From contig NC_086097.1 in NCBI RefSeq assembly GCF_963921235.1, positions 79,238,001 through 79,302,000 on the forward strand: a stretch of 64,000 bases of DNA, written 5' to 3'. The notes below the pieces were generated by a model that was not told where the DNA came from, searched no databases, and worked only from the letters and a program-made list of their open reading frames with translations. This document shows positions 7,936-64,000 of the stretch, in pieces. Every line of letters begins with the position of its first letter. Within the stretch, counting starts at the first letter, position 1. Source of the DNA: Mobula hypostoma. Taxonomy: Eukaryota. The position numbers and the translations under genes are program-made.

Positions 7936-8535
7936 TGGTCAAGGGGCTTTAATACAGACTTGGAAAGATTAAAAAGGAATATACTGCAACAAGTCTGAAA
8001 ATACTTGGTTTAGCAGCCAAACTTGAAATTTTCATCCTATTCATTGCAAATTATGAAAACGTTACAATATATATTAACTGAAGGTAATGAGAATCAATGT
8101 TAAAGTCAATTGTACTTTTTTTCCTTTAAAAAAATGACGGCAAATCCATAAAATATAAATTAAGCGCGGGGCTCAAGAGTTCAGAAAGCCAGGTTCTCCT
8201 CTCAGGATTTGACAAAGATTCCAGGCCAGAATGACGCAATCTTTCAGCCGACGCTTCAACCACACGTGGGACACACCACGAAGAGTGTGGAAAGAAATGG
8301 TGAGGACGGAAGGGCACACAGCGGTGGGGAGACCACTGTTTCTTAAATGTGAAGAAGCCGTGAGCCACCAGCGGGATCCAGCGGAGATCGCACCTGGGCC
8401 TCCCAAGTTTTCAACTCCTAGACCTTCATTTTTGTTCAATGAGCGAATCCACAAGGCAGTTTAAAAATCCAAGTAAAATATTCAGATCGATGACAGGGTT
8501 GATTTAGGCTCCGCTCGAGACTGAAGGGTAAACGT

Positions 8536-8709
8536 AAACATAAGAGATTCCACAGATGCTGGAAAAACAGCAACAAAATGATGGAGAAACTCAGCGGGTC
8601 AGGCAGCATTTATGAAAACGGATAAACAGTTGATCGGAAACACTGACTGTTCTGTTTCAATTTCATAGATGCTGTCTGACCTAACGAGTTACTCCAGCAT
8701 TTTGAGTGT
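8536..8709. mobile_element. Penelope-derived palindromic mini-insert, centre deleted
   Basis: Inverted arms caaaatgatggagaaactcagcgggtcaggcagcat / atgctgtctgacctaacgagttactccagcattttg; imperfect 10-bp flanking repeat. Confidence 0.65.
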
Positions 8710-8825
8710 GGATAAACGTGCCAGAATTAGGCCACAGCCCCAGAGTTCGGTCCTCAGAGCCTTTACCCACGGCGTGCGAGGGTACGAACGACAGATCCCC
8801 CCGGCGCACTCCAGACCTCACCTAC

Positions 8826-42600: not shown

Positions 42601-45600
42601 AGTCTCACTCTGCTAGATTACACCCCAGACTGATGGTGACTGTAAAGGAAACCTCACACTGGGTCCCTGGATTTCCACCTGCAGTGGCTGGGTATGTGAA
42701 TATGTACGTTCCGTGCCTTCAAACCCAGAGTGATTGTAGCGTCGCACAGCCAGTATCCCTTTTCCTATACCATCATAAATGGAATTAGAATTGCATAATC
42801 TTGCAATATTATATTGGGCTCTTCCTGAGGGGTGGTACTCACGGTAGGAAGCATCCTTGCTTGTCAATCTTTCATCAGGTTGTTGTCCCCACCTGTCCCT
42901 TGGTAGGTTTTTGTTCCCATTTCTGCTTCCCAGATATAGCCCTCTCGCATCCTTCTTCCTGCTGAACATATTCACCTTTAATGTTAGTTCCCTTCAGGGT
43001 TGATCGGAATTTGAAAGCTAGGTCCCAGTAATATGTTAAAGCTTGTCGCATTCGATTTCGGTTATTGTCAGGCTAATCCATATTATTAGTTTTAATCCTG
43101 TTAGCTAACTTAGTTGGTAAGCACTTGAGCAGTAGGGCATTAAACTGGGGGAACGGATTCCCATTATTAAAGGCTTGGTCTCCTACGAAAGTCCCAGGCT
43201 CAGGTTTGCATTCAAGTACTTTAGTGATACTTAGAGGTTGTTAGAGAGCCTTCCCCAAGGCTTGAATAATCCGGTCTGTTTGTTCATTCTCATTGTGGAT
43301 TCCCACCTGTGACTCCTGATAGGTTTGATATCTTAATTCTGCCTTCCATTTCCGCCCCTCATCAGATGAGAGAACAGTGCAGCAAAGATCAAATAAATCT
43401 TGTGGGGTCGCATTATACATTTGTATAGTACTGCGGACATACTAAACAAACTGTGCTGGTTCTTTTCTATCGGGGGCCTGATTCATGATCGTTACCATCT
43501 CTTGAGGCTTCCAGAGTTCATACAAGAGTTACGGAGGGATGTCCTCCTCGGCTGCTCGTGGACTGGGCAGCATTTGGGTAGGCAATTGTCTCTGTGGAGC
43601 CCTTAACTCTGGGGTTTTATTGGATTCTTCCCTTCCCTGCCGCTGCTGTTCTACCCGAGCGGCCACTGTATCCGAGTACTGGGAGGATTGGGGTTCGGAA
43701 GCACTGGGTGCACTCGATCTCTGGTAAGGTGGGGGATAAGGTGGGTGCCCAATCCTCATCGCGGTCACTGTCCTTAAACAGGGTCGGTATGCCAGATATG
43801 GGTTCGGGATCCCATATTGGCCCTAGATCTTCACACGCGGCATGGCCAATTTTAAACCTTCCTGTCTGTCTTTTCTGCTGTTGCCTGTGTTCTTTGTTTC
43901 TCGTTCTTGCTTTCTTCTCCCTTCTACCCATTAGCACTCTGCCTGCAGTGTCTCCCAACTCTTGGGAGTTCTTTCTGCCGTACATACCTCTATCCCTTTA
44001 TCACATGTATTATTCCTCCAGCTGGCCAGTAGGGTACCATTCCATTTAGTGTAGGCTGTACCTTTCCATTCTTTAATCAATAATTTCCACTTTTTACCGG
44101 AATTCTTTTCCCAAATTAAATTTACTGCTTGTTTCCCCTGGTGGCCACGCTGTTTTCCTAGTTTCTTTGTTGGCGCTGCACTTAACATCCGGAGGTCCTT
44201 TTCTTATCCGGTATTTGTTCACACACAGCTGTATCAAGGGCCTGTCCCATTATTTCCCTTATCAGTTGTTCTTATTTATCAAGTCAAGTGTATAGCACAT
44301 TTAAAAACAACCCACGTTGACCAAAGTGTTGTACAAAGTAAAGCAAGTAGCCAAATACACGAAACACAGACAACGAGGCAAACAGCTTATAGACACAAAA
44401 TACACAACACAAGGGCCTAGGCACAAGCCACTGGGTGAGAAATTTAGCCAGCCAGCCTGCCTCCCCCTTAATCAATTTCAACCGGCCATATTATCAGGAG
44501 GCAGCTGATGTGGTCAAATCAGTCAGGTAGCGCTGGCCGCCTCTCCTGACCGGAGTCCCCAGTCCGACTCTTTCCCTAATGTCACCCTCAGCATTTAATT
44601 CTCACAAAAACTGCTAGCCTGTTTTCAATTAATACTCGCAAAAAAAAACAACTCTCACATACTCTGGAGGCCTTTCCTCCTTTATCCTGAACTTGTCTCA
44701 TTAAATTTCAACCAGCCATATTTCTGCTGCCAAGGTGAGAATTTTACCGGGCTGCCAGTCTCGTATTTTTTTTACAAATTTCAACCGGCCATATCTTGAG
44801 ACATGTGCAACCCCTTTTCCGAATCATCAAATTTCAACTGGCCATATCCTGTCACCCGCAGCAATGTAAGAGAGACAACTGCTTACCTTAAATTCTGTAT
44901 CCAAACGGGTTGTCTGATCCTGTCAAGGTACCAGTCCCAATGGGCGAGGGGCAAAAATGTTCAGTCGGACACAAGGAGTAGCCAGAGGTAAACTATCTCA
45001 GGGCACCCAGCTACTCATTTGTGTTCGTTTCAAGCCCCCTGTCACTTACTCAGCCCAGAGAGACATTCCCTATGTTGGGATCCGAGTCACAGCACCAAAC
45101 GTAAATGTAAATTTGCTGGATCAAATAACAACAGCACAAAAAGATCATTACTTATCTCCTCACCCGGCAAGTGAACTTGGACCCAACATCTCATCTCTCC
45201 AACAGTTCAACAAGTTCACTGTCTGATGTCAGAATTGTTAGAAGTGATAAGGCCACTGATACAAAAGAACAATCAGTTTGATAGACACTCCAGGCACCTT
45301 AATTAAAGAAAGGAATGTCCTACCTGGTTTGTTGGAGCCACAACTTAATTACAAAGATAAGAACATACATCAAATTTATGCTTTAATTGATAAAGGAATG
45401 TCCTGTCTAATTTCCATCAGGTACTGCCTTTTGTCAAAGTCAAAAGGTGTGAAAAGCCAGGAGCCATGTGGATCTGGGTGAACTTTAACTCTTATCTTGC
45501 TCCAAAGAAAGCAACTGTGAGACACTATTCAAACACACTGCAGTCACAGACATAGTCAGTACTCAACTCATTGTTTACAGGAATCTGAGAATCCCTCATT

Positions 45601-47339
45601 CCCATAAACTTTATCAGGGAGGCTTGTACCATGATGGAGCTGTAATTGTCTGCAGCCTCTTGAGATCCTGTCCATTGGAACCTCCATATCAGGTGATGAT
45701 GCAACCAGTCAGAATGCTATCCGTGGTACATCTTGTAGATTAGTACTGATGTTGAATGCTGAGGTAATAAATAAACTGCAGCCTGATATGGGAATTGCTA
45801 TTGTCCATGTGATCCAAGGCAGAAGTAAAGCCAGTGAGATAATATCATCCAGCAGGCAGCGCGGCATGGCAACAGCGGCCTTTCGGATCTGGTGCTACTT
45901 TAATTTAGTTTTTAAATTTGATTTTAAGGCACAATTATGGTTTAGGGCAATGGATAACAGAGCAACTATCTACCATCGTCAGATACTGCTACAATACAGA
46001 GATCGCCCAAAAACAAACCTTCATGAAGATCTGCTGGTTAAGTTGCGTGACCTCGGCTTGTTGAGGGAATCGGGCCTGCAGTCCTCGGAGTTGCCTGATG
46101 CTGGTGGCCAGAGGTGGGGACGTTGTAAGCGGTGTGCGAGGAAGCGGAAGCAAGGTGAGCGGGTGGGAGTCCGTGTCAGGTAAAAAGTAAGCCCTAGCCG
46201 GCCGGCTCCCCCGTCCATGCTGCTCTCCAATGGACATTAAATTGGACTGCATCCGACTTCAATGAAATACTCGGCGGGAGTACAGAAACGGATGGAATCC
46301 CGGACTCAGCTATCTATTTATGTAACAGTCTTTTCCCCCAAGTCATCGGACTACCAACCTACTGCCCTCTGCTGTGCCTATTGTCTTGTTTATTATTTAT
46401 TGTAATGCCTGCACTGTTCTGTGTACTTTATGCAGTCCTGGGTAGGTCTGTAGTCTAGTGTAGTTTTTGTGTTGTTTTACGTAGTTCAGTGTAGTTTTTG
46501 ATGTTTTTGTATTGTTTCATGTAGCACCATGGTCCTGAAAAAAGTTGTCTTGTTTTTACTGTGTACTGTACCAGCAGTTATGGTCAAAATGACAATTAAA
46601 AAGTGACTTGACTTGACTTGATCTGTGGTAGATATGTTGTGGCAGTAAACAGATTGGAACAGGTCCAGGTCCTTGTTCAGGTAGGAATTAATTCTAGCTA
46701 TGACCAACTTCCTAAAGCACTTCATCACAGCAGATGTGAGTGCTACCAGGCAATAGCTGTTTAGGCAGTGACTAGAAAGAAATGGACAAGTGGAAATTGT
46801 ACAGTAATTTTTAACACACTTCTGCTATTAAGTCTGCAATAATGTTAAAGTTAAGACTGGTAGGTGTCAAAAGTGAACATAGAAAACAAGTTTGCATTCA
46901 CAGAACAATTGAACAAACAATGATCAAATACCGTCCATATACTAAACAACTACTCACTGTTCTATTTTACTTCAGTGATAATTCCTCGTATTGAACGCAC
47001 TTTGTCTTATATCATTACTGAGTTGGATGAAAGAGAAAGGGAGGAGTTCTACAGGTAAGTGGTGTGATTTTGTTCTTTGCACTACCTGTTGGTTTTGTTA
47101 CTAGGTTAAGCATCCCAGAGTGCTGTTTTGTGTATTTTAAGAAAAATCTAAGGATTGAGATATTATTGAATGCATTAAGCAATGTCCACTTTATGTGCAG
47201 ATTGAAAAAGATCCAGGAAAAGAAAAAACAGTTGAAGGAAAAGAGAGAAAAAGAACAGGAAGGTCGTAGACTAAACCATGATAATGTACCAGCCAACCTG
47301 CTTGAAGATGAAAAGGATGAGGACCTGCTCTTTGACTAA
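9571..47339 (+). CDS. ATP6V1D: V-type proton ATPase subunit D, complete spliced CDS: join(9571..9611,18455..18572,18844..18923,19219..19286,24867..24911,39766..39869,40133..40199,46976..47054,47201..47339); 741 nt, 246 aa
   Basis: The manually spliced exons give [46 protein letters not shown]...[11 protein letters not shown], recognisable as V-ATPase subunit D. All eight introns are GT-AG with compatible phases. Confidence 0.97.
11322..15217 (-). mobile_element. Near full-length CR1 LINE (partial ORF1 plus APE-RT ORF2, disrupted) in ATP6V1D intron 1
   Basis: ORF fragments from 11472 to 15158 with [21 protein letters not shown] and ITETW; CR1 3' tail at ~11322; ~86-bp nested insert at 14966-15051. 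Confidence 0.93.
15308..15553. mobile_element. Penelope-derived palindromic insert with degenerate hammerhead-like motifs
   Basis: Inverted arms acacacacaaaatgctggaggaa / ttcctccagcattttatgtgtgt; CTGATGA-agggtctcagccc at 15458. Confidence 0.7.
16088..16282 (-). mobile_element. tRNA-derived SINE with (TTC)n tail nested in the Penelope element
   Basis: A-box-like ggtggcgcgataa and B-box-like gaattcgaaccc; exact 16-bp TSD ggacatattagaatgg at 16072-16087 and 16283-16298. Confidence 0.82.
17008..17396 (+). repeat. Unclassified insert with (TGACC)n tail, nested in the Penelope RT
   Basis: Interrupts the Penelope sequence gggtttgtag(c)ag|tatcagtgga; GC-rich; ends tgacctgacct. Confidence 0.5.
17880..18250 (-). 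repeat. Old CR1 3' fragment
   Basis: [11 protein letters not shown] remnant in ORF 17898..18083. Confidence 0.55.
18455..18572 (+). CDS. ATP6V1D: ATP6V1D exon 2 ([39 protein letters not shown])
   Basis: Pyrimidine tract plus CAG acceptor, GT donor at 18573; peptide appears in ORF 18375..18608. Confidence 0.96.
18844..18923 (+). CDS. ATP6V1D: ATP6V1D exon 3 ([27 protein letters not shown])
   Basis: ttcttccag acceptor, GTGAGA donor, conserved peptide. Confidence 0.96.
19219..19286 (+). CDS. ATP6V1D: ATP6V1D exon 4 ([23 protein letters not shown])
   Basis: ttcag acceptor, GTATGT donor, conserved peptide. Confidence 0.96.
20665..20990 (+). repeat. Degenerate tRNA-derived (V-SINE-like) element
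   Basis: cagctccagagatctgggtttaaatctg head plus ctgtgtgaattcttcctgtg core; related remnants at ~5550-5750 and ~10250-10440. Confidence 0.45.
21680..24130 (+). mobile_element. Old, heavily mutated CR1 LINE (ORF1 remnant to 3' end)
   Basis: [14 protein letters not shown] and GVPQG remnants; CR1 3' end ctgtgctatatgactc. Confidence 0.8.
24867..24911 (+). CDS. ATP6V1D: ATP6V1D exon 5 ([15 protein letters not shown])
   Basis: taatag acceptor, GTAAGT donor, 45 nt, conserved peptide. Confidence 0.95.
25200..28100 (+). mobile_element. Cluster of old CR1 fragments (ORF1 remnant, APE remnants, 3' RT end)
   Basis: ORFs 26217, 27005 and 27523 ([24 protein letters not shown]); tail ctcctatgtcttatgg. Confidence 0.75.
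28313..30474 (+). mobile_element. Relatively young 5'-truncated CR1 (492-aa RT ORF 28666..30144) inserted in an older CR1
   Basis: Complete RT motifs (QQGF, DFSKAFD, GVPQGS, YADD); 8-bp flanking repeat aggttaaa at 28287 and 30475. Confidence 0.92.
30483..33400. repeat. Mosaic of old CR1 and Rex1-type fragments
   Basis: CR1 remnants at 30483-31100, 32040-32400 and 32700-33400; Rex 3' fragment (ESILTGCI) at 31120-31600; inverted tail attagattagattag at ~31630. Confidence 0.6.
34242..38141 (-). mobile_element. Young CR1 LINE (partial ORF1 esterase plus 904-aa ORF2 frameshifted near the 3' end) in ATP6V1D intron 5
   Basis: ORFs 34394..37108 and 37363..37953; 3' tail ttttctatgtttcta; near-identical to the 51145-54594 copy. 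Confidence 0.96.
38160..39280 (+). repeat. Very old CR1 ORF2 remnant
   Basis: KVDK and [12 protein letters not shown] remnants. Confidence 0.5.
39766..39869 (+). CDS. ATP6V1D: ATP6V1D exon 6 ([34 protein letters not shown])
   Basis: ttttaag acceptor, GTATGA donor, conserved peptide. Confidence 0.96.
40133..40199 (+). CDS. ATP6V1D: ATP6V1D exon 7 ([22 protein letters not shown])
   Basis: tttag acceptor, GTAAGC donor, hallmark [10 protein letters not shown] motif. Confidence 0.97.
40995..42161 (+). mobile_element. Non-autonomous hAT (Charlie-like) DNA transposon inserted in ERV pol
   Basis: TIRs cagcggtccccaacc / ggttggggac; 8-bp TSD tcttacca (40987-40994, 42162-42169); transposase C-terminal remnant [13 protein letters not shown] at ~41215; nested CR1 3' end at 41557-41750. 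Confidence 0.88.
44279..44420 (-). repeat. LINE (L2/Rex-like) 3' tail inserted in the ERV leader
   Basis: Minus strand reads tgtacaacactttggtcaacgtgggttgtttttaaatgtgctatacacttgacttga. Confidence 0.55.
45080..45097 (-). other. Retroviral primer-binding site, tRNA-His type
   Basis: TGGTGCTGTGACTCGGAT, 17/18 match to the complement of the tRNA-His 3' end (TGGTGCCGTGACTCGGAT). Confidence 0.8.
45100..45579 (-). mobile_element. Putative 5' LTR of the ERV
   Basis: Adjacent to the PBS; TGTAAA...TTTACA inverted termini (45579 and ~45106); no second LTR to confirm. Confidence 0.45.
45850..46620 (+). mobile_element. Internally deleted Rex1-like element (5' end joined to 3' tail), nested in an inverted older Rex fragment (45620-46770)
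   Basis: N-terminal [25 protein letters not shown], then a jump to the 3' region and a (GACTT)n tail. Confidence 0.65.
46976..47054 (+). CDS. ATP6V1D: ATP6V1D exon 8 ([27 protein letters not shown])
   Basis: ttcag acceptor, GTAAGT donor, hallmark LDEREREEF motif. Confidence 0.97.
47201..47339 (+). CDS. ATP6V1D: ATP6V1D exon 9, terminal coding part (LKKIQEKKK...DEDLLFD*)
   Basis: tgcag acceptor; TAA stop ending at 47339. Confidence 0.96.
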
Positions 47340-50739: not shown

Positions 50740-50985
50740 GTGCAAGGGAAATTAATTCAGGTAAAAATTCAGATGCTGGTTCACGCCTAGCCAGTAAATT
50801 TGGGAAGGTTTTACAGATACAGCATTGGTGATACTTTTCCAGTGTTTTGAGTCTCTGTAGTGGGTAGCCTATGACTTGGAACTGGAGGGCATTAAACAAT
50901 AGTATCTGGCAGAACATGAACTTCTGCATCAGTGTGAGGTCTTGATGTTCAAACACTCTACCTTCTCTCAGTCAAAGGCGCAATT
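50740..50985 (-). repeat. Ancient RTE-clade LINE remnant
   Basis: Minus strand RVFEHQDL..KFM and LKTLEKYHQCC resemble the RTE ORF C-terminal region. Confidence 0.55.
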
Positions 50986-51144
50986 TCATTTTTGCTGCGC
51001 CTGGAGATATGTGAAACCATTCATCTGTCGATCTCTCTGACTTGCTGCGCTCTATCGGTTTTTTCTTGATTGATTTTTCAAAACCTCAATCTAATTGGCT
51101 TTGTGGCTAATGAGGTCCTAGATCTCTTGTTCTCAAACCAGTGT

Positions 51145-54100
51145 TAGACATAGACATAGAAAATAGGTGCAGGAGTAGGCCATTCGGCCCTTCGAGCCTG
51201 CACCGCCATTTATTATGATCATGGCTGATCATCCAACTCAGAACCCAGCCTTCCCTCCATACCCCCTGACCCCTGTAGCCACAAGGGCCATATCTAACTT
51301 CCTTTTAAACATAGCTAATGAACTGGCCTCAACAGTTTGCTGTGGCAGAGAATTCCACAGATTCACCACTCTCTGTGTGAAGAAGTTTTTCCTAACCTCG
51401 GTCCTAAAAGGCTTCCCCTCTATCCTCAAACTGTGACCCCTCGTTCTAGACCTCCCCAACATCGGGAACAATCTTCCCGCATCTAGCCTGTCCAATCCCT
51501 TTAGGATCTTATACGTTTCAATCAGATCCCCCCTCAATCTTCTAAATTCCAACGAGTACAAGCCCAGTTCATCCAGTCTTTCTTCATATGAAAGACCTGC
51601 CATCCCAGGAATCAATCTGGTGAACCTTCTTTGTACTCCCTCTATGGCAAAGATGTCTTTCCTCAGATTAGGGGACCAAAACTGCACACAATACTCCAGG
51701 TGTGGTCTCACCAAGGCCTTGTACAACTGCAGTAGTACCTCCCTGCTCCTGTACTCGAATCCTCTCGCTATAAATGCCAGCATACCGTTCGCCTTTTTCA
51801 CCACCTGCTGTACCTGCATGCCCACTTTCAATGACTGGTGTATAATGACACCCAGGTCTCGTTGCACCTCCCCTTTTCCTAATCGGCCACCATTCAGATA
51901 ATAATCTCTTTTCCTATTTTTGCCACCAAAGTGGATAACTTCACATTTATCCACATTAAATTGCATCTGCCATGAGTTTGCCCACTCACCCAACCTATCC
52001 AAGTCACCCTGCATCCTCTTAGCATCCTCCTCACTGCTAACACTGCCACCCAGCTTCGTGTCATCCGCAAACTTGGAGATGCTGCATTTAATTCCCTCAT
52101 CCAAGTCATTAATATATATTGTAAACAACTGGGGTCCCAGCACTGAGCCTTGCGGTACCCCACTAGTCACCGCCTGCCATTCTGAAAAGGTCCCGTTTAT
52201 TCCCACTCTTTGCTTCCTGTCTGCTAACCAATTCTCCACCCACACCAATACCTTACCCCCAATACCGTGTGCTTTAAGTTTGCACACTAATCTCCTGTGT
52301 GGGACCTTGTCAAAAGCCTTTTGAAAATCCAAATATACCACATCCACTGGTTCTCCCCTATCCACTCTACTAGTTACATCCTCAAAAAATTCTATGAGAT
52401 TCGTCAGACATGATTTTCCTTTCACAAATCCATGCTGACTTTGTCCGATCATTTCACCGCTTTCCAAATGTGCTGTTATCACATCCTTGATAACTGACTC
52501 CAGCAGTTTCCCCACCACCGACGTTAGGCTAACCGGCCTATAATTCCCCGGTTTCTCTCTCCCTCCTTTTTTAAAAAGTGGGGTTACATTAGCCACCCTC
52601 CAATCCTCAGGAACTAGTCCAGAATCTAACGAGTTTTGAAAAATTATCACTAATGCATCCACTATTTCTTGGGCCACTTCCTTAAGCACTCTGGGATGCA
52701 GACCATCTGGCCCTGGGGATTTATCTGCCTTCAATCCCTTCAATTTACCTAACACCACTTCCCTACTAACATGTATTTCGCTCAGTTCCTCCATCTCACT
52801 GGACCCTCTGTCCCTTACTATTTCTGGAAGATTATTTATGTCCTCCTTAGTGAAGACAGAACCAAAGTAATTATTCAATTGGTCTGCCATGTCCTTGCTC
52901 CCCATAATCAATTCACCTGTTTCTGTTTGCAGGGGACCTACATTTGTCTTTATCAGTCTTTTCCTTTTTACATATCTATAAAAGCTTTTACAGTCCGTTT
53001 TTATGTTCTCTGCCAGTTTTCTCTCATAATCTTTTTTCCCCTTCCTAATTAAGCCCTTTGTCCTCCTCTGCTGAACTCTGAATTTCTCCCAGTCCTCAGG
53101 TGAGCCACTTTCTCTGGCTAATTTGTATGCTACTTCTTTGGAATTGATACTATCCCTAATTTCTCTTGTCAGCCACGGGTGCACTACCTTCCTTGATTTA
53201 TTCTTTTGCCAAACTGGGATGAACAATTGTTGTAGTTCATCCATGCAACCTTTAAATGCCTGCCATTGCATATCCACCGTCAATCCTTGAAGTGTCATTT
53301 GCCAGTCTATCTTAGCTAATTCACGTCTCATACCTTCAAAGTTACCCCTCTTTAAGTTCAGAACCTTTGTTTCTGAATTAACTACGTCACTCTCCATGTT
53401 AATGAAGAATTCCACCATATTATGGTCACTCTTACCCAAGGGGCCTCTCACGACAAGATCGCTAATTAATCCTTCCTCATTGCTCAAAACCCAGTCCAGA
53501 ATAGCCTGCTCTCTAGTCGGTTCCTCGACATGTTGGTTCAAAAAACCATCCCGCATACATTCCAAGAAATCCTCTTCCTCAGCACCTTTACCAATTTGGT
53601 TCACCCAGTCTACATGTAGATTGAAGTCACCCATTATAACTGCTGTTCCTTTATTGCACACATTTCTAATTTCCTGTTTAATACCATCTCCGACCTCACT
53701 ACTACTGTTAGGTGGCCTGTACACAACTCCCACCAGCGTCTTCTGCCCCTTAGTGTTACGCAGCTCTACCCATATCGATTCCACATCTTCCCGGTTTATG
53801 TCCTTCCTTTCTATTGCGTTAATCTCTTTTTTAACCAGCAACGCCACCCCACCTCCCCTTCCTTCATGTCTATCCCTCCTGAATATTGAATATCCCTGAA
53901 CGTTGAGCTCCCATCCCTGGTCACCCTGGAGCCATGTCTCTGTGATCCCAACTATATCATAATCATTAATAACAATCTGCACTTTCAATTCATCCACCTT
54001 ATTACGAATGCTCCTTGCATTGACACATAAAGCCTTCAGGCGCTCTTTTACAACTCTCTTAGCCCTTTTTAATGCTTGCCCTGGATTTGTCGGCCTGCCA

Positions 54101-54594
54101 CTTTTACTTTTCCCCTTTGTACTTTTTGCTTCTACGCTCACTTTACACCCCTCTGTCTCTCTGCACTGGTTCCCATCCCTCTGTTGTGAACTAACCTCCT
54201 CACACCTAGCCGCTTTAATTTGATTCCCACCCCCCAACCATTCTAGTTTAAAGTCACCTCAGTAGCCCCCGCTAATCTCCCTGCCAGGATATTGGTCCCC
54301 CTAGGATTTAAGTGTAACCCGTCCTTTTTGTACAGGTCACACCTGCGCCAAAAGAGGTCCCAATGATCCAAAAACTTGAATCCCTGCCCCCTGCTCCAAT
54401 CCCTCAGCCACGCATTTATCCTCCACCTCATCGCATTCCTACTCTGTCGCGTGGCACAGGCAGTAATCCCGAGATTACTACCTTTGCGGTCCTTTTTCTC
54501 AACTCCCTATATTCTTCTTTCAGGACCTCATCCCTTTTCCTACCTATGTCATTGGTACCCATATGTACCAGGACCTCTGGCTCTTCACCCTCCC
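51145..54594 (-). mobile_element. Young 5'-truncated CR1 LINE with uninterrupted ORF2
   Basis: ORF 51238..54237; damaged ORF1 3' part at 54243-54594; tail ctatgtctatgtcta. Confidence 0.97.
51238..54237 (-). CDS. CR1 ORF2: APE endonuclease plus reverse transcriptase (999 aa)
   Basis: NARSI, GITETW, GDFN and SDH (APE); QHGF, DFQKAFD, GVPQGS and FADD (RT); no internal stops. Confidence 0.9.
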   Translation of the reverse strand: MGGGNQIKAARCEEVSSQQRDGNQCRETEGCKVSVEAKSTKGKSKSGRPTNPGQALKRAKRVVKERLKALCVNARSIRNKVDELKVQIVINDYDIVGITETWLQGDQGWELNVQGYSIFRRDRHEGRGGGVALLVKKEINAIERKDINREDVESIWVELRNTKGQKTLVGVVYRPPNSSSEVGDGIKQEIRNVCNKGTAVIMGDFNLHVDWVNQIGKGAEEEDFLECMRDGFLNQHVEEPTREQAILDWVLSNEEGLISDLVVRGPLGKSDHNMVEFFINMESDVVNSETKVLNLKRGNFEGMRRELAKIDWQMTLQGLTVDMQWQAFKGCMDELQQLFIPVWQKNKSRKVVHPWLTREIRDSINSKEVAYKLARESGSPEDWEKFRVQQRRTKGLIRKGKKDYERKLAENIKTDCKSFYRYVKRKRLIKTNVGPLQTETGELIMGSKDMADQLNNYFGSVFTKEDINNLPEIVRDRGSSEMEELSEIHVSREVVLGKLKGLKADKSPGPDGLHPRVLKEVAQEIVDALVIIFQNSLDSGLVPEDWRVANVTPLFKKGGREKPGNYRPVSLTSVVGKLLESVIKDVITAHLESGEMIGQSQHGFVKGKSCLTNLIEFFEDVTSRVDRGEPVDVVYLDFQKAFDKVPHRRLVCKLKAHGIGGKVLVWVENWLADRKQRVGINGTFSEWQAVTSGVPQGSVLGPQLFTIYINDLDEGIKCSISKFADDTKLGGSVSSEEDAKRMQGDLDRLGEWANSWQMQFNVDKCEVIHFGGKNRKRDYYLNGGRLGKGEVQRDLGVIIHQSLKVGMQVQQVVKKANGMLAFIARGFEYRSREVLLQLYKALVRPHLEYCVQFWSPNLRKDIFAIEGVQRRFTRLIPGMAGLSYEERLDELGLYSLEFRRLRGDLIETYKILKGLDRLDAGRLFPMLGRSRTRGHSLRIEGKPFRTEVRKNFFTQRVVNLWNSLPQQTVEASSLAMFKRKLDMALVATGVRGYGGKAGF

Positions 54595-54902
54595 TGTTGC
54601 TGCTTTCAAATAGACAAACAGTAGTTTCTTTGCAGGTATTAATTCAGGTGGTTGGGGCTTGTCAAGGTTCCACAAAGTAAATCATGAAGAGCTGCCTTTT
54701 TGAAGTTTTTCAAATCTTCAGTGTTTTGTTTTCTTGCAGCAACACTCCTTTTCCTGCCCGTTTTGGGGTCAGGCTGAAGATAAAGGGAATTTGATCATCA
54801 AATAATTACATTGAGCGTTTTTAGTTCAAAGGCGTCATAAGGGTGTTGCAGTGAGCCTTTTCATAGTCTCTAGTTAAAAAAAAACATTAGTTATGACAAG
54901 AC

Positions 54903-55270
54903 ACACAAAATGCTGCAGGAAGACCTCAGCAGTCCAAGTAGAATCTATGGAAAGAAAAAGTACTGTTGACATTTCAGGCTGAAACCCTTCGGCAGGAATA
55001 ATACTATCTGGCAGAACATTAACTTCTGCATTGGGGCGAGGTCTTGATGTTCAAATACTCCTCCTTCTCTGAGCCAAAGGTGCAATTTCATTTTTGCTGT
55101 GCTAGAAATATGTGAAGCCATTCATCTGTCAATCTCTCTGACTTGACGTCCTGCCAAAGGGTTTCAGCCCAAAACGTTGGCTGTACTTTTTTCTCCAGAT
55201 GCTGAGTTCCTCCAGCATAAAGTGTGTGTTGCTCGGATTTCCAGCATCCGCAGATGTTCTCGTTTGTGAA
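54903..55270. mobile_element. Penelope-derived inverted-arm insert with two hammerhead-like motifs enclosing a copy of nearby DNA
   Basis: 12-bp TSD ttatgacaagac (54891-54902, 55271-55282); arms ~54903-54996 and ~55148-55270; core 54997-55145 duplicates 50895-51044. Confidence 0.82.
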
Positions 55271-55554
55271 TTATGACAAGACTATGTTCCAAGCATTTTG
55301 CTCCAAGATTACTTCCAATGAAGTTAGCCTCAACAACTCTCTCCTAACCAATCATGCCCTACCAGAGGACTGTGCCTTTTCCAACCTTGGCATTGAAGTT
55401 CTGAGGAGAGTCAGTTCATTCCAAAGTTGAGGTGTACATATTGATGACTGTAGCATACAGGTTGCATATTGGAGTGAGCTGGAAAGTGCATAAGATGAAA
55501 GAATTGCTAGAGATGTCAATGTAAATTGGCAGTGAACAGTAAGCACTGGGAATT

Positions 55555-55662
55555 CACACAAAATGCTGGAGGAACTCAGTAGGCCAGGCAGCATCTATAG
55601 AAAAGTGTACACAGTTGATGTTAGGGCCGAGACCCTTCAATGAGACACTTCCCATGTCCGTA
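55555..55662 (-). mobile_element. Single-arm Penelope-derived mini-insert
   Basis: cacacaaaatgctggaggaactcagtaggccaggcagcatc...gggccgagacccttca; 14-bp flanking repeat aagcactgggaatt (55541, 55663). Confidence 0.72.
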
Positions 55663-55769
55663 AAGCACTGGGAATTATCTTGGGAACAAGCTTGGGGTTT
55701 TTACAACAGCTTTGTTAAAACAAAAATGTACTCAAGTTAGTGCAAACTGGCTGTGTATAAAGGAAACAG

Positions 55770-57087
55770 GTATCTCATATCACTGTAAAATGCAGCATGA
55801 GGGTTGTTTGCTTGGCAGCATTTTGTTTTTCAGCATAAATTTGCTTGTATGGAAGAAGGATTGACTGCAGGGAACAACTGAAATGCTGACTCTGTTCTAA
55901 ACCTGGGTCCATGCCCATTACCATTTGTGCCAAGTGTTCCGCAGCCTTAAAAAATTCTGCCAGTTGCTTCACTGTTGCTTGACCAGTGACCTATGCTTTC
56001 TTGTTAGCTGCCCAGTGGACAGGAAGCATATTCTTACTCAAACCCTTCAGAGCATGGGGGTTTAGTGAATGGTAAACTAAGACGGGCTTCATTTTACAGT
56101 CTCCTTCGACATTGGAACACATAGACAGAGTTAACTTATCCTTTGCTGCCTTGAAACCTGACGCAGTCTTTTCATCCTTACATATTTAAGTGCGTTTCGG
56201 CATACACTTCCAAAAAAAGCCTGGTCTCGTCTGCATTAAACACCTGCTTTGGTGTGATGCCTAACTCAGCTATCATAGCCCGCAACTACAAAGGGTAGCG
56301 TTCAGCAGCTTTGTGGTCAGCACTAGCTCGCTCACCACGCACAGCTAAGTTGTGAAGCCTGTGTCGATTAACAAACTTAGAAAACCATCCCCTACTTGAA
56401 CTAAAGCTAACTATGTCACTTGACACTTCCTCACTAGCCTCTGAACAAAGGTGACCATAAATTTCCAAAGCTTTCACACGAAGATGATTGGAACTGGGTG
56501 TTGTTTTTTTCTTTGTTTCATTCTCAATGTACAAACTCAACATTTTCTCCATTTTTGTCATAATCCGGTTATGCACTTGGTAACTATCTTTGAAGACACT
56601 TGTGAGGAATCAATCACTGCACTTTTTATTTTCTCAGCATTTTTCTTTATGTTTCTGATCGTGGAAGTAGCATCCCAGAGCTGTGTTACCTTCACCCGAC
56701 GCGGCCCTGTTTATAATTTCCAGCTTATTTTTCAAGTGTTAAAGCCGTTCACTGCCACTTGGCTGATGGCCCAGGACTTGACATAGGACACTTAGGAGGC
56801 ATAGTTAAATATTTCAAGCACGAAGTCAGTGCACCGTAGGTAATAACAACAAAAGTTTAAGAGCGCAAGATCCAACATCCACACGCTGCCAAAATGCAAG
56901 ACTGGCAGGAGTGAGACTGTGAGGCGTGCGCCCTGACTTGTATTGGCGGGAAAGCGGTGCTTCTCGTCCCAACAGCCTCGCTTAACTATGAGTTTTGGAC
57001 GCACATAAGGAGAAGTTGATAGAAATAGGTTCGACGCATAACTGTGAATCCACGTTGTCTGAAGATGCATATAACGAGGATAGGGTG
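55770..57087 (-). mobile_element. Tigger/pogo DNA transposon, internally deleted transposase (CENP-B HTH plus partial DDE)
   Basis: SRGWFSKFVNRH..GERASAD, QVFNADET and KAAKDKLTL motifs; TIR-like end followed by TA at 57087-57089. Confidence 0.85.
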
Positions 57088-57208
57088 TATCAAACTTTCA
57101 AGTTCTGGATGACTTCATTCTCACCGATCCCCTTTCTGATCTTTCCAAGATTTAAAAAAAAAATGCATATCACTTTAATGAGCTCCAAATCAGGCAGGAG
57201 TGATTTGT

Positions 57209-57214
57209 TTTATT
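57209..57214 (-). terminator. Candidate PALS1 polyadenylation signal (AATAAA on - strand)
   Basis: About 1.25 kb downstream of the stop, at the end of an AT-rich stretch with no obvious repeats (57200-58450) that looks like a 3' UTR. Confidence 0.4.
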
Positions 57215-58451
57215 GAAAATCTACAAATACACTTTTACATTATTCTGTGTGGTCAAGTGTCTGGAAATAATTTCTATAATTAGAGTGTATTTATATTGCC
57301 AGCTGAGGCTGTACCCTGAATATGGATAGACTCATGTTAAAATATGCATAATTTGCACATGGCACATCCAAACATTTGCCCAAAGGATTTCAAAAGAATG
57401 AAGGGTGTACAGATAAATTGGCATGTTCTCAAACCCCGACTGCTGACCCATCAATAAAATTAAATATCCCAATTACTTATACAGCTATTAATGCTTAACC
57501 CCTTTCAAACACGCTGCTGTGCTTTATACAAACAAATAGGTATCAAATGCACCATCTCCAATGTCTCTGCTGGTTTAATACTGGAAAAATCATTTGCATA
57601 AAACAAAAACAAAACATGCATCATTCATAAATTGTTCAGCGAATTTTAGCCAGAAACAGTGTCATTAAATTCCAGTGTTTAAAAGCCATTCTCAAAAATA
57701 AGAGAAATTGCATTACTATCTAGATTTCATGTAAAAGATTCTACCAGACTCAGTCATTTTAATTAAAATATTCACATTTGACGATTGCGCTTTTTAAAAG
57801 GCAGCTGCTTAGGATGTACGCTGTGCCAATTATTAACTTTATGTACAGTAGTTACATTCAATAATTCTACTCCAGTCCATGATCAAACTTGCTGATCATT
57901 AGTGACAATGTATTAGTCTGCACAAATTAGGTTCACACATATACACTCTTTAAAAACAAATCATCAAGTCTTTCAACTGAGCAAAACTGCCCAAAACTAA
58001 AGTGTCTTTCTGTTATGACAAACCAGAATCTATTATAATGTAAAAAAATCTATGCTGTGGAATTCGTGAATTCTATTTTCCATAAAAAATATAGGCATAC
58101 TTTTCCTCACAAAAAGACCCTGAACAGTGTGTGTCAAATTATCATCGATCGAGGCTGTAACCTAAACAAAATAAAAAATACTGCACCTAAAAAGGTTAAA
58201 TCTGTAGTCTGAAGACATGTATATATACAGTGCGATTCAGAGATAGCTAATGACAGAAGAGTATCTATATTTACATTATAAATAGCTTCCATAATAGTAA
58301 TTATACAAGTATTTCTACTGCCAATTTCTGGCATAAACTGGAATGTTCAATAGTCAATCCCTGCCAACCCCCAACCCCACCCTCTACTGCTCGAGTTAAT
58401 CATCATTTTCTGATAAACTTTCATTTTAAAAAAATGTCCTGTTATTTGTTT

Positions 58452-58628
58452 TCACCGAAGCCATGAAGACGGGACCCACTGAGGTTCTGTGTCAAGTTTA
58501 TTTATGAGGCGAATTAACTCTTGATATGCCTTTTCCAAGTCCGTATTAACAATTGCTGCATCAAAATAGTGTCCATAGTTCTGCTCCATTTCCCTGGCCT
58601 TTTCTATGATATCCCGCAAATCTTCAGG
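58452..58628 (-). CDS. PALS1: PALS1/MPP5 last coding exon ([23 protein letters not shown]...[11 protein letters not shown])
   Basis: C-terminus of a MAGUK p55 guanylate-kinase domain ending WVPSSWLR; ttttgtag acceptor; TGA stop. Confidence 0.93.
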
Positions 58629-59049
58629 CTACAAAATAAAAATAAAAGATGTTTGGTATAGTTCTAGCAGCAGCATTTACATAGCAAAAGATTACCTGCT
58701 CCATATTAAATCACTAAAGGGTTAATTAAAATGTTTATAGACCCAAAGTAAAATTAAATGTATTCACTCCAGTTTCTCAGACAAACTGCGAGGCAAGTAC
58801 CTTAAAGTCCTTTCTGAACCAACACCCTGGCATCATCTGTCATGGACAGATCACATTTTCCTTTCTATCAATTATGGAAATGCATTATTTTAACCTGGAT
58901 TGCAGTATCCCAAATAATGTTCAATTTTACAATTAACTTACTTGCCTCTCTGTTTCTGATTCCCTCCAAAATCAATACATTCTTATATTTGCACACAATA
59001 TGTTGGGGGACCAGAGCTGGAGCTGCATGACCTATACATCATTTGGAAG

Positions 59050-61950
59050 AATGTGAAGTTGATAGGTAAGAGCTACAGAGAGGCAATCACACACCTAAAT
59101 TACAAGAGACAGTTAGCTGGAAAAGGAGTGGAAAAGGAAACAGGCATATAATGCAAAGTACCCCTCAGGGCCGGCTGGTGTAGTGGCATCAGCAATGGTC
59201 TTCAAGGCAAATGGTCCTGAGTTCAAACTCAGTCAGGTCCCAACCTGGGGAGCAGCAGAATCTGTGCGGAAGAAAGGCCTGGCAATCTACTTCCGTATCT
59301 TGCGCATCTACCCTATAGTCCATGAGGTCACAAAGAGTTGGACTTGACGTAACGACTGAACAACAAACCCCTAAATAATAAGTATATCAATTTGGATACT
59401 GTTGGGGGTAGAGGGTGGGGTGGAATGACCTACTAGGGAATGACCAGGTCTCTGAACAGAGTCTGGCTCCCTGGCTCAGACTGGGGTTGGTGTTAGGGGA
59501 GAAAAGGATAGTGGTGGTAATACAGGATTCAATAGTTAAAGGAACAGACAGTAGATTCTGTGGATGTGATAGACTCCCAGATGGTATGTTGTGTCCCAGG
59601 TGCCAGGTTCAGGGATGTACAGATTCAGAATCAGGTTTAATATCACTGGCATATGTTGTTTGGGATTAGGTCCACAGCATTCTTGAGGAAGGTGAGCAGA
59701 TAGAAGTTGTGATACATATTAATACCAATGACAAAGGTAGGAAAAGAGATGAGGTCCTGGAGCAGCGTACATAGGGAGCTAAAAAGCAGGACTCAAGGGT
59801 AGTAATCTCTGGATGGCTGCTTGTGCCAAACACCAGTGAGCATAAGAATAGGATGACAGGTCAGAGGCATGTGTGGCTGAAGAATTGGTGCAGGTAAATT
59901 TGTGGATGATTGGGATCTTTTCCAGGGAAGGTATGATCTGTCCAAAAAGGATGGATTACATCTGAACTCAAAGGGGACAAAAGCGCTTGCGGGCAGATTT
60001 GCAAGAGCTGTTGAAGAGGTTCGCAGAAGGATGGGAACCAGAGTGATAGGTCAGAGGATAGAGCAGGTGGATACAAAGTGTAGAGAGTTTGCGAAGAAGG
60101 TAAAGGTAGATGCAATGTGTAGACAAACTGTGAGGAAGGATAAGCAGTGGATAGGGAATAAATGCAGTCAGTTGGGTGGGTTGAAATATGCCTGATGTGA
60201 GAGTATCAAGAACAAGTGCGATAAATGTAGAGCATGGATCAGTAGGGCCAGCACTGAGTTGTACTGTTCTATACATAAAATTCGATTTTTTCTCGAAACA
60301 AGAGGTAGTGCATTTTGGGGGAAGAAAATAAGTACAGCTAAGATCAGATTCACCAGGATCTTACTGAATGGTGACATTGTTTCAAATGGCTACAAGGGTT
60401 ACTCCTCCAATTTACTGGAAAGTTCCTCAAGACTGGAAGATGTCTAATGTTGTTCAATTGTATAAGGAGGGTAGCAAGGACAAGTCAGGGAGCTATAGGT
60501 TGGTCAGCTTGACAACAATTGTGGAGAAGTTACTGGAATTTTGAGGGACAAGATTGAGGAACTTAGAGCTGTTCACCCTCTCAACCCCAGATCCATTGAC
60601 GTCAAAGGGGGTTAGCCTGTCTCCATTCCTCCTGTAGTCCACAACCAGCTCCTTTGTTTTTGCGGCATTGAGGGAGAGGTCGTTTTCTTGACACTACTGT
60701 ATCAGGGAGATGACTTCTTCCCTGTAGGCTGCCTAATTATTATTTGAGATTAGGATAATCAGTGTAGTATCGTCGATTAGCAGATTGGAGCTGTGGGTGA
60801 CGACACAGTCATAGGTATAGAGAGAGTAAAGGAGGGGGAAAATTGGAGAAAGGCTAAGTTTGATGGTATCAGAAAGGATCTGGCAAGTGTGGATTGGGAC
60901 TGGATGTTTTCTGGCAAAGGTGTACTTGGTAAGAGGGGGGCCTTGAAAAGAGAAATTTTGACAGTACAAAGCTTGTATGTGCCTGTCAGAATAAAAGTTA
61001 AAGATAACAGGCTTAGGGAACCTTGGCTTTTCACGCGATAATGAGGCCCTGGTTAAGAGATTCTATTGATATGTTAAGAGCAAAAGGATTGCAAGGGACA
61101 AAACTGGTCTTCTGGAAGATCAGAATGATAATCCACGTGTGGGGCCGAAAGAGATGGGTGAGATCATAAATGGATGACTTTGCATCTCTGTTTACTCAGG
61201 AGACAGATACAGAGTCCATCAATGTGAAACAAAGCAGCAGCATGGTCACCTAAGTAAGTAAGTAAAGGGCAGCAGGTTCATAAATATATCTCCCGATGCC
61301 GGTTCCTCTTCAAGTCACAAAACATGGATAAAACAATGGTAAATGAGTTTCTCGCAGATATCAACTTTGGAGGTTAGAATTCAAAGTTTTCTGAATAATG
61401 AAAAGCTAGAAGTTTAGGAGATTCAGAAAACTTGGTCTTGGGACTCTGTTCACTGTTCAGTAAAATTCCATGGACAGGCATAGAAAATACTTCAATAGCT
61501 AATGAAATGCTGATTTTTTATATCCAGAGAATCAGAAAGGACAGAAGTAATGCTGCATCTATACCAAACCCCAAATTTGATGACATCTAAATTTCTTGGT
61601 CCTGGAGGGAGGAAGGTACAGGTTTACTAGAATGATGTCTAGACATCAAGGCTTAAATTTAGAAGCGAGATCCTACTAGGATTGCAGATAATGGAACACG
61701 AAAGGACACACGTGTTTAATTCTACTCAAAATTTCACACAGCAAGATGGATTACCATTTCAGCTAGAGTGGGAAAATCTGAGGATATTGTCTTACAATTA
61801 AGTCTAGGGCATTCAGGAACAATTGAGAAACATTCACATACAGAGCATGCAGAAATCTGGATTTTTTTCTGCAAACAGCAGGTAATATTAAATCTAAAAT
61901 TGATGGGCTTATGATAACCAGATACTATCGGATAAGGAAACTAGACAGAT
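59050..61950 (+). repeat. Mosaic of old CR1 fragments (ORF1 and ORF2) with nested SINE and Rex fragments
   Basis: DSIVKG and KKDGLHLN (ORF1); WRKAKFDGIR (ORF2); inverted Rex piece at ~60570-60840. Confidence 0.65.
59168..59366 (+). mobile_element. tRNA-derived SINE with RTE/BovB-like 3' tail
   Basis: ggtgtagtgg A-box-like and gagttcaaact B-box-like motifs; tail ggtcacaaagagttggacttgac..gactgaacaacaa; flanking acccct repeat. Confidence 0.7.
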
Positions 61951-62361
61951 CTTTTGTTTGGCTATGATGTTACTATATGGCATTTAGCTGGATGAGCCAA
62001 TGGCTCACTCTTATTTTTACGTTCTCATGGGTGAGTGAAAAGTTAACAGGAACAAGGAGAATAAGGAGCTCAAGGTCATGCTTCATGGAATTGTAGGAGA
62101 TTTTACAGCACTCTGCCAACTTAACCGCTAAACTTGTTGATAAACGGTGATCAAGAAAAGACTAGAACGTTGGAAAACTATGCATAATGTTTAACTGGAG
62201 AAATCTAAAATACATTGCAATGAATATAAGGAATTATTATTGCTGCCGGTTCTTGACCTACGCATAATACAACTTTTTTCTGAGGAAAAAGTACACAGGA
62301 ACCCGATGAAACTGAAGTTTTAAACGAGAGGCTTTTCACGACCTATATAAAAAAATACTAC

Positions 62362-62690: not shown

Positions 62691-62718
62691 ATCCAAAGTA
62701 ACATTGTTTTTACTACAG

Positions 62719-62810
62719 TGTCCTGACGAAGGGTCTTGGCCTGAACCGTCGACTGCACCTCTTCCTACAGATGCTGCCTGGTGTTCATCAGCAACTTTGA
62801 TGTGTGTTGC
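62719..62810 (+). ncRNA. 92-bp Penelope-derived insert carrying a minimal type I hammerhead-ribozyme-like motif
   Basis: gtc-CTGACGA-agggtcttggcct-GAAC-c-GTC-gac; exact 15-bp TSD ttgtttttactacag (62704-62718, 62811-62825). Confidence 0.65.
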
Positions 62811-63626
62811 TTGTTTTTACTACAGATCATTTAAACAATAAGATGGTGTACAAGAAATTTCACGTGGATAGTTAAGCCTTCACTGTAAATTTGACAAAAT
62901 CTATGCCAAATCAGGTGAGCTTTAGGACAAAAAGTGATGGTTTAAAAAAACATTTTTATTGGATTTTAAAAAAATTGACCTAAAAAAGTAACATTTGATG
63001 GCAGGACTAAAATATCTTGAAAGTGCTAATATCAAAATAAATCAATAGGATATGTCTAAGCAAACTTCAAAAGAGTACAGATGAACTTGCATAGTTTTGC
63101 TCCATAATTATCTACATGAACTAATTTTGTGTAAAATACGCAAAAAGATTTTGCATTCATAATAATCAAAACACCAGGTGTTCAAGTTATTTTCAGGTTC
63201 TGGATTTACTGTTGGTAACAATTGTTTCTTTAACCACTCGACATGGCCCAATTTAAACTATTCCAGTTGTTGCTACAACATTCCCTGTATATGTTTTATT
63301 CCCAGTTGTCTCCAATGCCTGTATTATTTTTAATTCATTCAATATGAAAGTAATATTCTTTTTGTACAAAATTATCAGGATATTCAATATTAACATTTTA
63401 ATTCTTCCACCAATGGAAATCTACCAGTCATAGGTGACTAAGCATGTCCATTTTCTGGCTTTGTGGTAAATCACTGATCATGAGTTTTAAGGAACCAAGT
63501 ATTTTTTCTCTATACTGTATTGTTAACCCTATTTATGCAACAATTATCTCACTGGTATTGCTTTTCAAATTTCTTAATAAAAATACTGCATTGCTACTGG
63601 ATTAGTTCACACACTTTATTGCTTAC

Positions 63627-63829
63627 CTGTGTGTGTAAATTTAACAAGCAAATCTTCCCAGAGTTAATCACTTGTCGTACTGAATCAATACTGGTACCAT
63701 ACAAATTTTTTTCATATTCTCCATATTCGATGAATTTGTTGGTGGCAATGTCAGCTTCAAAAATCTGACGTGCCACAAAGAGGTAATCACGTCCATTCAC
63801 CTCGCTATCTCTCATGGGCCGTGTTGTAT
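63627..63829 (-). CDS. PALS1: PALS1/MPP5 exon ([19 protein letters not shown]...[11 protein letters not shown])
   Basis: GUK signature HTTR...YGTS in ORF 63594..63923; AG acceptor and GTAAGC donor. Confidence 0.94.
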
Positions 63830-63905
63830 CTACAAGTTTAAGAATACGAGTTAGAGAGTTCATAACAAACACTACAGTTAAACAAAAATAGTACATGTAA
63901 CTTAC

Positions 63906-64000
63906 GGGGCACTGCCGGAGCAAAACGATCAGCCTCTCTTTCCATCAGCTTCTGTCGCAGTTCATTCTGACCACAGTTTACTGGGCCAATTAAAACTATT
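63906..64000 (-). CDS. PALS1: PALS1/MPP5 exon, cut by the window edge ([31 protein letters not shown])
   Basis: GUK N-terminal motif [14 protein letters not shown] donor into a 76-nt intron (63830-63905). Confidence 0.92.

Follow-up and report, generated by a model that had tools for sequence, protein, structure and literature searches.

How did a short copy of neighbouring DNA come to lie at the turn between two inverted arms of a Penelope-like retroelement, inside a single target site duplication (TSD)? We examined this question in a 64,000-nucleotide stretch of Mobula hypostoma DNA (the window, whose numbering is used throughout). Its comparison with other organisms drew, in place of a whole-assembly search, on contigs of four public runs (three organisms, here A, B and E; three samples), which were aligned to positions 54540-55760 at 80% likeness. 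The features of the locus and of the related copies are collected in Table 1. We conclude that the locus holds an old, dead two-armed Penelope-type insertion without evident function, and the paragraphs below consider how its centre was filled.

Table 1. Positions of the insertion, its parts, the source of its core and the copies used for comparison.
Feature	Position	Strand	Basis or remark
TSD, left copy, 12 bp	54891-54902	+	Exact; sole repeat of at least 5 bp at both boundaries
Left arm: inverted, 5'-truncated Penelope-like terminal repeat, without tail	54903-54996	-	Alignment to the longer copy (15561 onward), at its 3' end
Minimal-hammerhead-like motif, left arm	54968-54995	-	C at core position six; 5-bp helix II; most of the helix I 5' strand absent
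Core, 149 bp: same-orientation copy of 50895-51044	54997-55145	+	87.3% identity
Two non-source bases completing the palindrome centre (the missing continuation of the left arm)	55146-55147	+	Chance ~0.07
Right arm: direct, 5'-truncated terminal repeat with a 14-bp internal deletion	55148-55225	+	Alignment; same end point as the left arm
Decayed hammerhead-like motif, right arm	55151-55178	+	CpG changes in both conserved boxes; seen by alignment to other arms
One-sided tail extension, ~45 nt	55226-55270	+	Common to the long copy (15561-15605); missing in the left arm
TSD, right copy	55271-55282	+	Exact match to the left copy
Source of the core: unique intergenic DNA without surrounding arm or TSD	50895-51044	+	BLAST, inspection
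Younger LINE	51145-54594	-	1006-aa ORF; endonuclease and RT by Pfam
Longer, decayed Penelope-like element sharing the arm subfamily, used as reference copy	15561-17000	-	Arm and tail run on into a broken ORF
Inner ends of short arms	54996, 55148, 55646, 62720		Compared with long copies at 15404, 15455 and 15696

The insert is 368 bp long (54903-55270) and is bounded by exact 12-bp direct repeats, for which the chance expectation over 11 x 11 boundary offsets is ~1e-5. The repeats enclose both arms, as expected from the original prediction of one TSD-flanked 368-bp unit, and the right flank, with tail and TSD, is also covered by contigs of organisms A, B and E. The layout of arm, core and arm that had been proposed is correct in its three parts, except that two nucleotides (55146-55147) lie outside both the source and the right arm. 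The arms are inverted with respect to each other, 54955-54997 being 81% complementary to 55149-55191 over 43 nt, and folding of the whole unit gave z = -6.3 in a comparison with 100 shuffled sequences. In the right arm 14 bp are missing between two short direct repeats (region 55198-55207), and the left arm has three extra bases at 54922-54924; these may represent either private decay after insertion or differences between the templates.

The same terminal sequence was found by BLAST and inspection at nine places in the window, comprising three inverted pairs (the unit itself, ~8536-8712 and ~15313-15553), two solo arms with TSDs of 14 and 15 bp, and one long copy. A core is present in one of the three pairs. 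The left arm has its best partner among the six other arms in the right arm (81.8% identity), the right arm is 84.4% identical to the long copy, and the identities of the other arms are 59-79%; on these values both arms and the long copy at 15561 are assigned to one subfamily. The ORF remnant of the long copy has, by eye, a Cys-rich linker and a VIY..YIG endonuclease motif. In Pfam searches of this copy GIY-YIG was the sole match, weak (E 0.05-0.09) and below the curated cut-off, and two frames of 16475-16972 gave no match to a reverse transcriptase (RT), the copy being 5'-truncated before the RT core. With no preserved RT, the case for calling the copies Penelope-like consists of the anatomy together with the weak GIY-YIG match. 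That anatomy is the one described for these elements, namely a truncated copy in inverted orientation, a tail confined to one side and one TSD (PMC8557442), all of which the unit has, and one-sided tails of 30-40 bp are described as typical of Penelope-like elements (PMC8557442; PMC11167929). The earlier identification of the arms as inverted and Penelope-like is supported by the inverted pair, the tail and the alignment to the copy at 15561-17000. A scan with the arm pattern gave 0 matches in viral contigs, and its five matches in metagenome contigs were rejected as 22-nt chance hits in GC-rich sequence without further similarity.

Several of the other copies are worth describing. The small inverted pair at 8529-8719 has no core and a 7-bp TSD, and is situated just outside a GC-rich stretch that resembles a gene start. 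The pair at 15313-15553, which has neither a core nor a clear TSD, abuts the decayed copy at 15561-17000, and the endonuclease region of the latter is broken by an insertion at ~16100-16290. The solo arm at 55541-55676 (14-bp TSD) belongs to another subfamily and lies 270 bp to the right of the unit; for a 16-nt filler at its inner end (55647-55662) the window held no source better than 4 mismatches. The second solo arm (62704-62825, 15-bp TSD) has a canonical first hammerhead box.

Both arms of the unit and both solo arms, four of the nine, end within about one base of a single site. In the longer copies the site is preceded by a pyrimidine tract, whose pyrimidine content is 88-92% in three copies, and by AG; judged by its sequence, it resembles a 3' splice site placed at the 5' border of the hammerhead motif. 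In Drosophila virilis the 3' end of an intron is reported to map to the 5' end of helix I (PMC4209133). A programmed stop would explain the symmetrical arms, an idea that is post hoc and drawn from few arms (4/9).

A hammerhead-like motif had been proposed at the inner end of each arm, with CpG decay in the right one. The motifs are indeed at those places and the right one is decayed as described, but they are not canonical: Rfam returned no hammerhead in the unit at E up to 10, and the sixth core position is C in both arms, with the helix I 5' strand mostly replaced. A weak Rfam match to a MIR399 hairpin was rejected as a product of the inverted arms. The canonical minimal hammerhead descriptor (CUGANGA and GAAA boxes, helix II) had 0 matches in the window; with the sixth position relaxed, the left arm was the only match in the window, and the right arm failed both descriptors. 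Core position 3 of the two motifs lies at 54995 (minus) and 55151 (plus). No helix I closing the cleavage site was found, the arms being truncated at its 5' strand and the left arm scoring 0 bp. Because the variant sixth position is common to three copies, we consider it ancestral in the subfamily. Both arms run through the predicted cleavage site, so the arm templates were uncleaved, and the possibility that they had been cut by the ribozyme was rejected on the same grounds. As the motifs are on opposite strands, any one transcript would carry a single motif, downstream of the core. Single minimal hammerheads are reported not to have cleaved in vitro, a same-strand partner being needed, and the same 2014 paper records Schistosoma motifs paired on opposite strands at distances of 100-700 bp (PMC4209133). 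The further suggestion of ribozyme-bounded cargo units is not upheld, given the opposite strands, the truncated helix I and the variant core.

The core aligns to its source with E 2e-48; the 150 alignment columns contain 18 substitutions and one gap, a total (19/150) that equals the one estimated for a same-orientation copy of 50895-51044 in the original prediction. This source is the sole significant match to the core in the 64-kb window. No TSD was found around it, and BLAST found no arm beside it. The distance from source to TSD is 383 bp in organism B and, by subtraction of the LINE, 392 bp in the window, and the chance of a random source falling within 400 bp in a 2.5-Gb genome is ~5e-7. 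The TSD thus contains non-element sequence with a unique parent nearby, and the local templating of the core that had been predicted is borne out.

Approximately 54,000-62,000 contig records per run were aligned, nearly all of them falling on the arms and the end of the LINE. The core was covered by one contig in organism A, which is the source, and by two in organism B, the source and the core. Among the A and B contigs at 80% likeness no further copy of the core was found beyond source and core; the arms, in contrast, are repeated on a massive scale. Depth summed across the two core-only bins came to 18.7 in A, all of it from the source contig, to 18.6 in B, with 9.49 from the source and 9.14 from the core, and to 20-33 in E, the depth elsewhere being 9-17 in the flanks and hundreds to hundreds of thousands in the arm bins. 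Since contig depth is no copy number and the filter drops records (A's own core contig is missing), these values are evidence against a dispersed core family, not proof of exactly two copies. Of the outcomes named beforehand as refuting the local origin of the core, two did not occur among contigs at 80% likeness: the core is not a multi-copy family, and no distant copy is closer to the core than its source.

Source and insertion are separated in the window by the younger LINE, which we take to be CR1-like, Pfam giving endonuclease and RT only. It is 95.3% identical to a second near full-length copy at 34248-37715, and its target duplication is apparently only 4 bp. The LINE is present at this position in organism A and absent in organism B, in which a 1738-nt contig contains the source and then, 87 bases on, the sequence from 54595. 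The 1006-aa ORF and the absence from B indicate that it is a recent insertion. It had been proposed that a younger LINE split the source from a site ~400 bp away, and organism B, with the two 383 bp apart on one contig and no LINE, confirms this.

The locus lies between two convergent gene ends, at ~47339 (plus) and 58452 (minus). The minus-strand end is that of a guanylate-kinase-domain gene with last exons at 58452-58628 and 63594-63944, which we presume to be PALS1/MPP5-like. The plus-strand last exon (~47200-47339) is, we assume, probably that of V-ATPase subunit D, for which there was no Pfam support. Broken reading frames at ~55780-56790 (minus) have what we take to be a resemblance to Tigger/pogo DNA transposase, and short-frame fragments at ~40550-45500 presumably resemble gag-like or RNase H-like proteins of retroviruses or LTR elements.

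Contigs of organism E, whose flanks are ~7.6% diverged, show the left arm at this very position, the core and right arm joined on one contig, and the tail together with the right flank; a contig of organism B spans arm, core and arm with 5 differences. Because E has the insertion at the same site, the unit predates the E split. Arms are present at this position in each of the three organisms, and neither an empty site nor an orthologue with arms and no core was found among the contigs of A, B and E. The core in E is closer to the source than is the core of the window. In the part covered by E there are 16 core-source differences; at the 14 of these that are listed, E agrees with the source at 6 and with the window core at 8. 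The source-letter fraction expected for a copy made before the split is 0.31, and the chance under independent mutation is 7e-7. Three of the six source-letter sites are on contigs running into the right arm and three are on a short contig, which we assign to the core because it overlaps those contigs and is without the source letter at six other sites. No source contig of E aligned to the core, and A's own core contig is likewise missing; we do not read this as absence. Arm-arm divergence (14/77) and core-source divergence (18/149) did not differ (Fisher p 0.23), and by this measure core and arms are indistinguishable in age. At that age the probability of an intact 12-bp TSD is 0.22.

The junctions provide a further view of the event. 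Both arms stop at the same element base, and when exactly 54997-55145 is removed, what remains is a palindrome without spacer that is centred between 55147 and 55148 and has 8 perfect pairs from the axis and 36/44 overall, no base being lost or gained. The core is offset from this axis by 2 nt, with 1 nt of microhomology at each of its ends. A spacer-free palindrome of at least 5 bp resulted from 7 of 169 trial removals, four of which had another axis and three of which were equivalent registers. The restored palindrome is weak evidence for a patch, as it hangs on two free bases (chance ~0.07). The last seven bases of the left arm match the bases just before the source at 5 of 7 positions (chance ~0.04), which fits either priming by a cDNA end or a final annealing step. 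Splice capture, in which a host exon is joined to the acceptor-like site, was rejected since there is no GT splice donor at either end of the source.

The explanation that we favour, and consider somewhat probable, starts from a head-to-head Penelope insertion of the ordinary kind. Gap filling, either while the element was integrating or shortly afterwards, would have patched the centre of this insertion with a copy of nearby DNA. The Penelope-like element would have cut both strands 12 bp apart, and both ends would have been extended into short terminal-repeat copies, yielding a head-to-head insertion with its tail on one side. The anatomy of such a product is what we observe, and the two-ended priming is carried over from in vitro work on another element: the Anolis Penelope-like protein is described as cleaving and extending both strands in vitro, with reverse transcription of the Anolis element starting at two adjacent sites and so defining the tail (PMC11167929). 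Because both arms end at the same base, the product or an integration intermediate, whether of two-ended or of fold-back synthesis, would have been a spacer-free palindrome. Its centre may then have opened ~2 nt off the axis, and a free 3' end would have copied 149-150 nt from DNA 390-540 bp away, with ~1-base microhomology at each end, before being rejoined. The copying would be DNA-templated gap filling of the synthesis-dependent strand annealing (SDSA) type, presumably by host repair, and the patch a one-off passenger that, by supplying a spacer, probably also stabilised the palindrome. Patching would have occurred once, before E split from the lineage of the window, with neutral decay since.

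The size and closeness of the patch match those of L1 templated insertions, which are described as local and <250 bp in 22 cases and are ascribed to an SDSA-like step (Zumalave et al., 10.1101/2024.08.27.596794), and those of single-copy Pack-TIRs, the parents of which are reported to be mostly within 5 kb, with gap filling at internal breaks (Tan et al., 2021, PMC8277862). Polymerase theta is a poor fit because its patches are usually <25 bp, as described in PMC12426944. The gap-filling explanation has several points against it: there is one case, the palindrome argument depends on two bases, neither a coreless orthologue nor an empty site was seen among the A, B and E contigs, L1 templates are typically within 15 bp of the site (10.1101/2024.08.27.596794) compared with 390 here, and the left junction has its 5/7 match.

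The original prediction had attributed the core to template switching by the Penelope RT. The enzyme would have finished one arm, jumped to a local template (read-through RNA or exposed DNA) and copied 149 nt, the end then being joined to the other arm with two untemplated bases; we consider such a jump possible, if doubtful. It is in keeping with the indistinguishable ages of arms and core, with the activity of the Anolis protein on both strands in vitro (PMC11167929) and with the 5/7 match at the left junction, and there is precedent in an L1 insertion co-inserted with pre-mRNA from its vicinity, which was ascribed to RT strand switching (PMC10191854), and in the template-switch junctions described for L1 (PMC11702581). 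An RNA template was plausibly available since the locus sits between convergent gene ends, and read-through RNA of either polarity from the genes flanking the source could cover it. However, the two non-source bases exactly complete the palindrome (chance ~0.07), no sign of an RNA template was seen (neither a splice donor at either source end nor poly(A)), and Pack-TIRs are described as reaching the same anatomy without any RT (PMC8277862). The local templating in the earlier proposal stands, but the RT as copier is not established and the junctions fit a repair patch at least as well. One fixed locus cannot separate host gap filling from an RT jump.

The same observations bear on the order of events. 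That the core is older than the arms, having arisen by an earlier local duplication followed by two independent arm insertions, or that copying ran from core to source, is in our estimation improbable. Consistent with such an order, no empty site was found among the A, B and E contigs and the E source was not seen; against it, the single TSD encloses both arms, neither of which has its own TSD at the core edges, and the arms are of one subfamily with the same end base. A core-to-source copy made after the E split would need at least 18/149 differences at 7.6% divergence (p 0.03), and copying in that direction would also need the exact exclusion of both arms. It is very improbable that the arms frame a cargo mobilised in trans as an arm-core-arm unit, possibly ribozyme-excised, in the way suggested for Penelope repeats of rotifers. 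In Adineta vaga, such repeats and TSDs are described as framing both host genes and non-coding DNA (PMC3846280), but here there is no second copy of the core among the A and B contigs at 80% likeness, and the source is without an adjoining arm and within 400 bp (random chance ~5e-7). The opposite-strand motifs, with their truncated helix I and variant core, also argue against excision, given the reported failure of single minimal hammerheads to cleave in vitro (PMC4209133). We regard trans mobilisation as largely refuted.

The insertion shares features with several known systems. It is like the head-to-head Penelope insertions described by Craig et al. (2021, PMC8557442), Frangieh et al. (2024, PMC11167929) and Cervera and De la Pena (2014, PMC4209133) in its inverted 5'-truncated copy, tail at one end, one TSD and hammerhead-like motif, and unlike those described there it has a non-element core from nearby DNA at the turn. 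In the Penelope captures of Adineta vaga, non-element sequence likewise lies between pLTRs inside a TSD, and the cargo is described as coding or not, including "a few" non-coding cases (Arkhipova et al., 2013, PMC3846280). In that study the cargo is taken to have reached another locus in trans, whereas here the source of the 149-bp core is 383-392 bp off and has no repeat, and movement of cargo to a distant locus was not found. L1 templated insertions (10.1101/2024.08.27.596794) and L1/pre-mRNA co-insertion (Nam et al., 2023, PMC10191854) also place a short local template inside a TSD. As described, the L1 cases concern another class of retroelement and are somatic tumour events, with templates typically within 15 bp, whereas the patch here has an element arm on either side and is a fixed germline feature of several related organisms. 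The unit resembles single-copy Pack-TIRs in having single-copy host sequence between inverted ends and a nearby parent. Microhomology, also described for Pack-TIRs, amounts here to 1 nt at each end of the core. Pack-TIRs are defined for DNA transposons with TIRs, and the word Penelope is absent from the main text of the paper (PMC8277862). The unit may work like a Pack-TIR but is not one, its inverted ends being terminal repeats of a retroelement (cDNA arms). A non-LTR retrozyme was rejected, since this is described as needing tandem same-strand repeats each with a type I hammerhead (10.64898/2026.07.22.740005), and the arms here are inverted and single.

Within the open-access literature, to which the search was confined, no account of a Penelope fold-back with a locally sourced core was found, and the available text of PMC12016303 and of 10.1101/2024.12.14.628481 (2026 version) holds nothing on locally templated patches. 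The original claim that the structure lacks precedent was nevertheless too strong, as non-coding cargo in A. vaga (PMC3846280) and L1 templated insertions (10.1101/2024.08.27.596794) are published, and it is only the combination that was not found in that literature.

How Penelope-like elements finish integration, and why inverted forms arise, is described as an open question (PMC8557442; PMC11167929). Filler traced to target-adjacent DNA reveals that, in a two-armed insertion, the centre was at one time an open end that could be extended at the target. Locally sourced filler can also be scored across genomes, which offers a way to tell an RT jump from gap filling by the host. The locus also shows that very abundant Penelope elements can seed small local duplications, as human L1 and some DNA transposons do. 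We suggest, tentatively and as a less than probable generalisation, that two-armed Penelope integration regularly leaves a centre that is not closable by pairing and that is bridged, by the element or by host repair, with 100-300 bp from within ~1 kb. The centre would resist closure by pairing because both arms stop at the same base, which here is a 3'-splice-site-like boundary at the 5' edge of the ribozyme. If true, regular bridging would continually generate short local duplications in the arm-rich genomes of cartilaginous fish, by a route not described so far, and such cores would constitute a fossil record of how Penelope integration intermediates are resolved.
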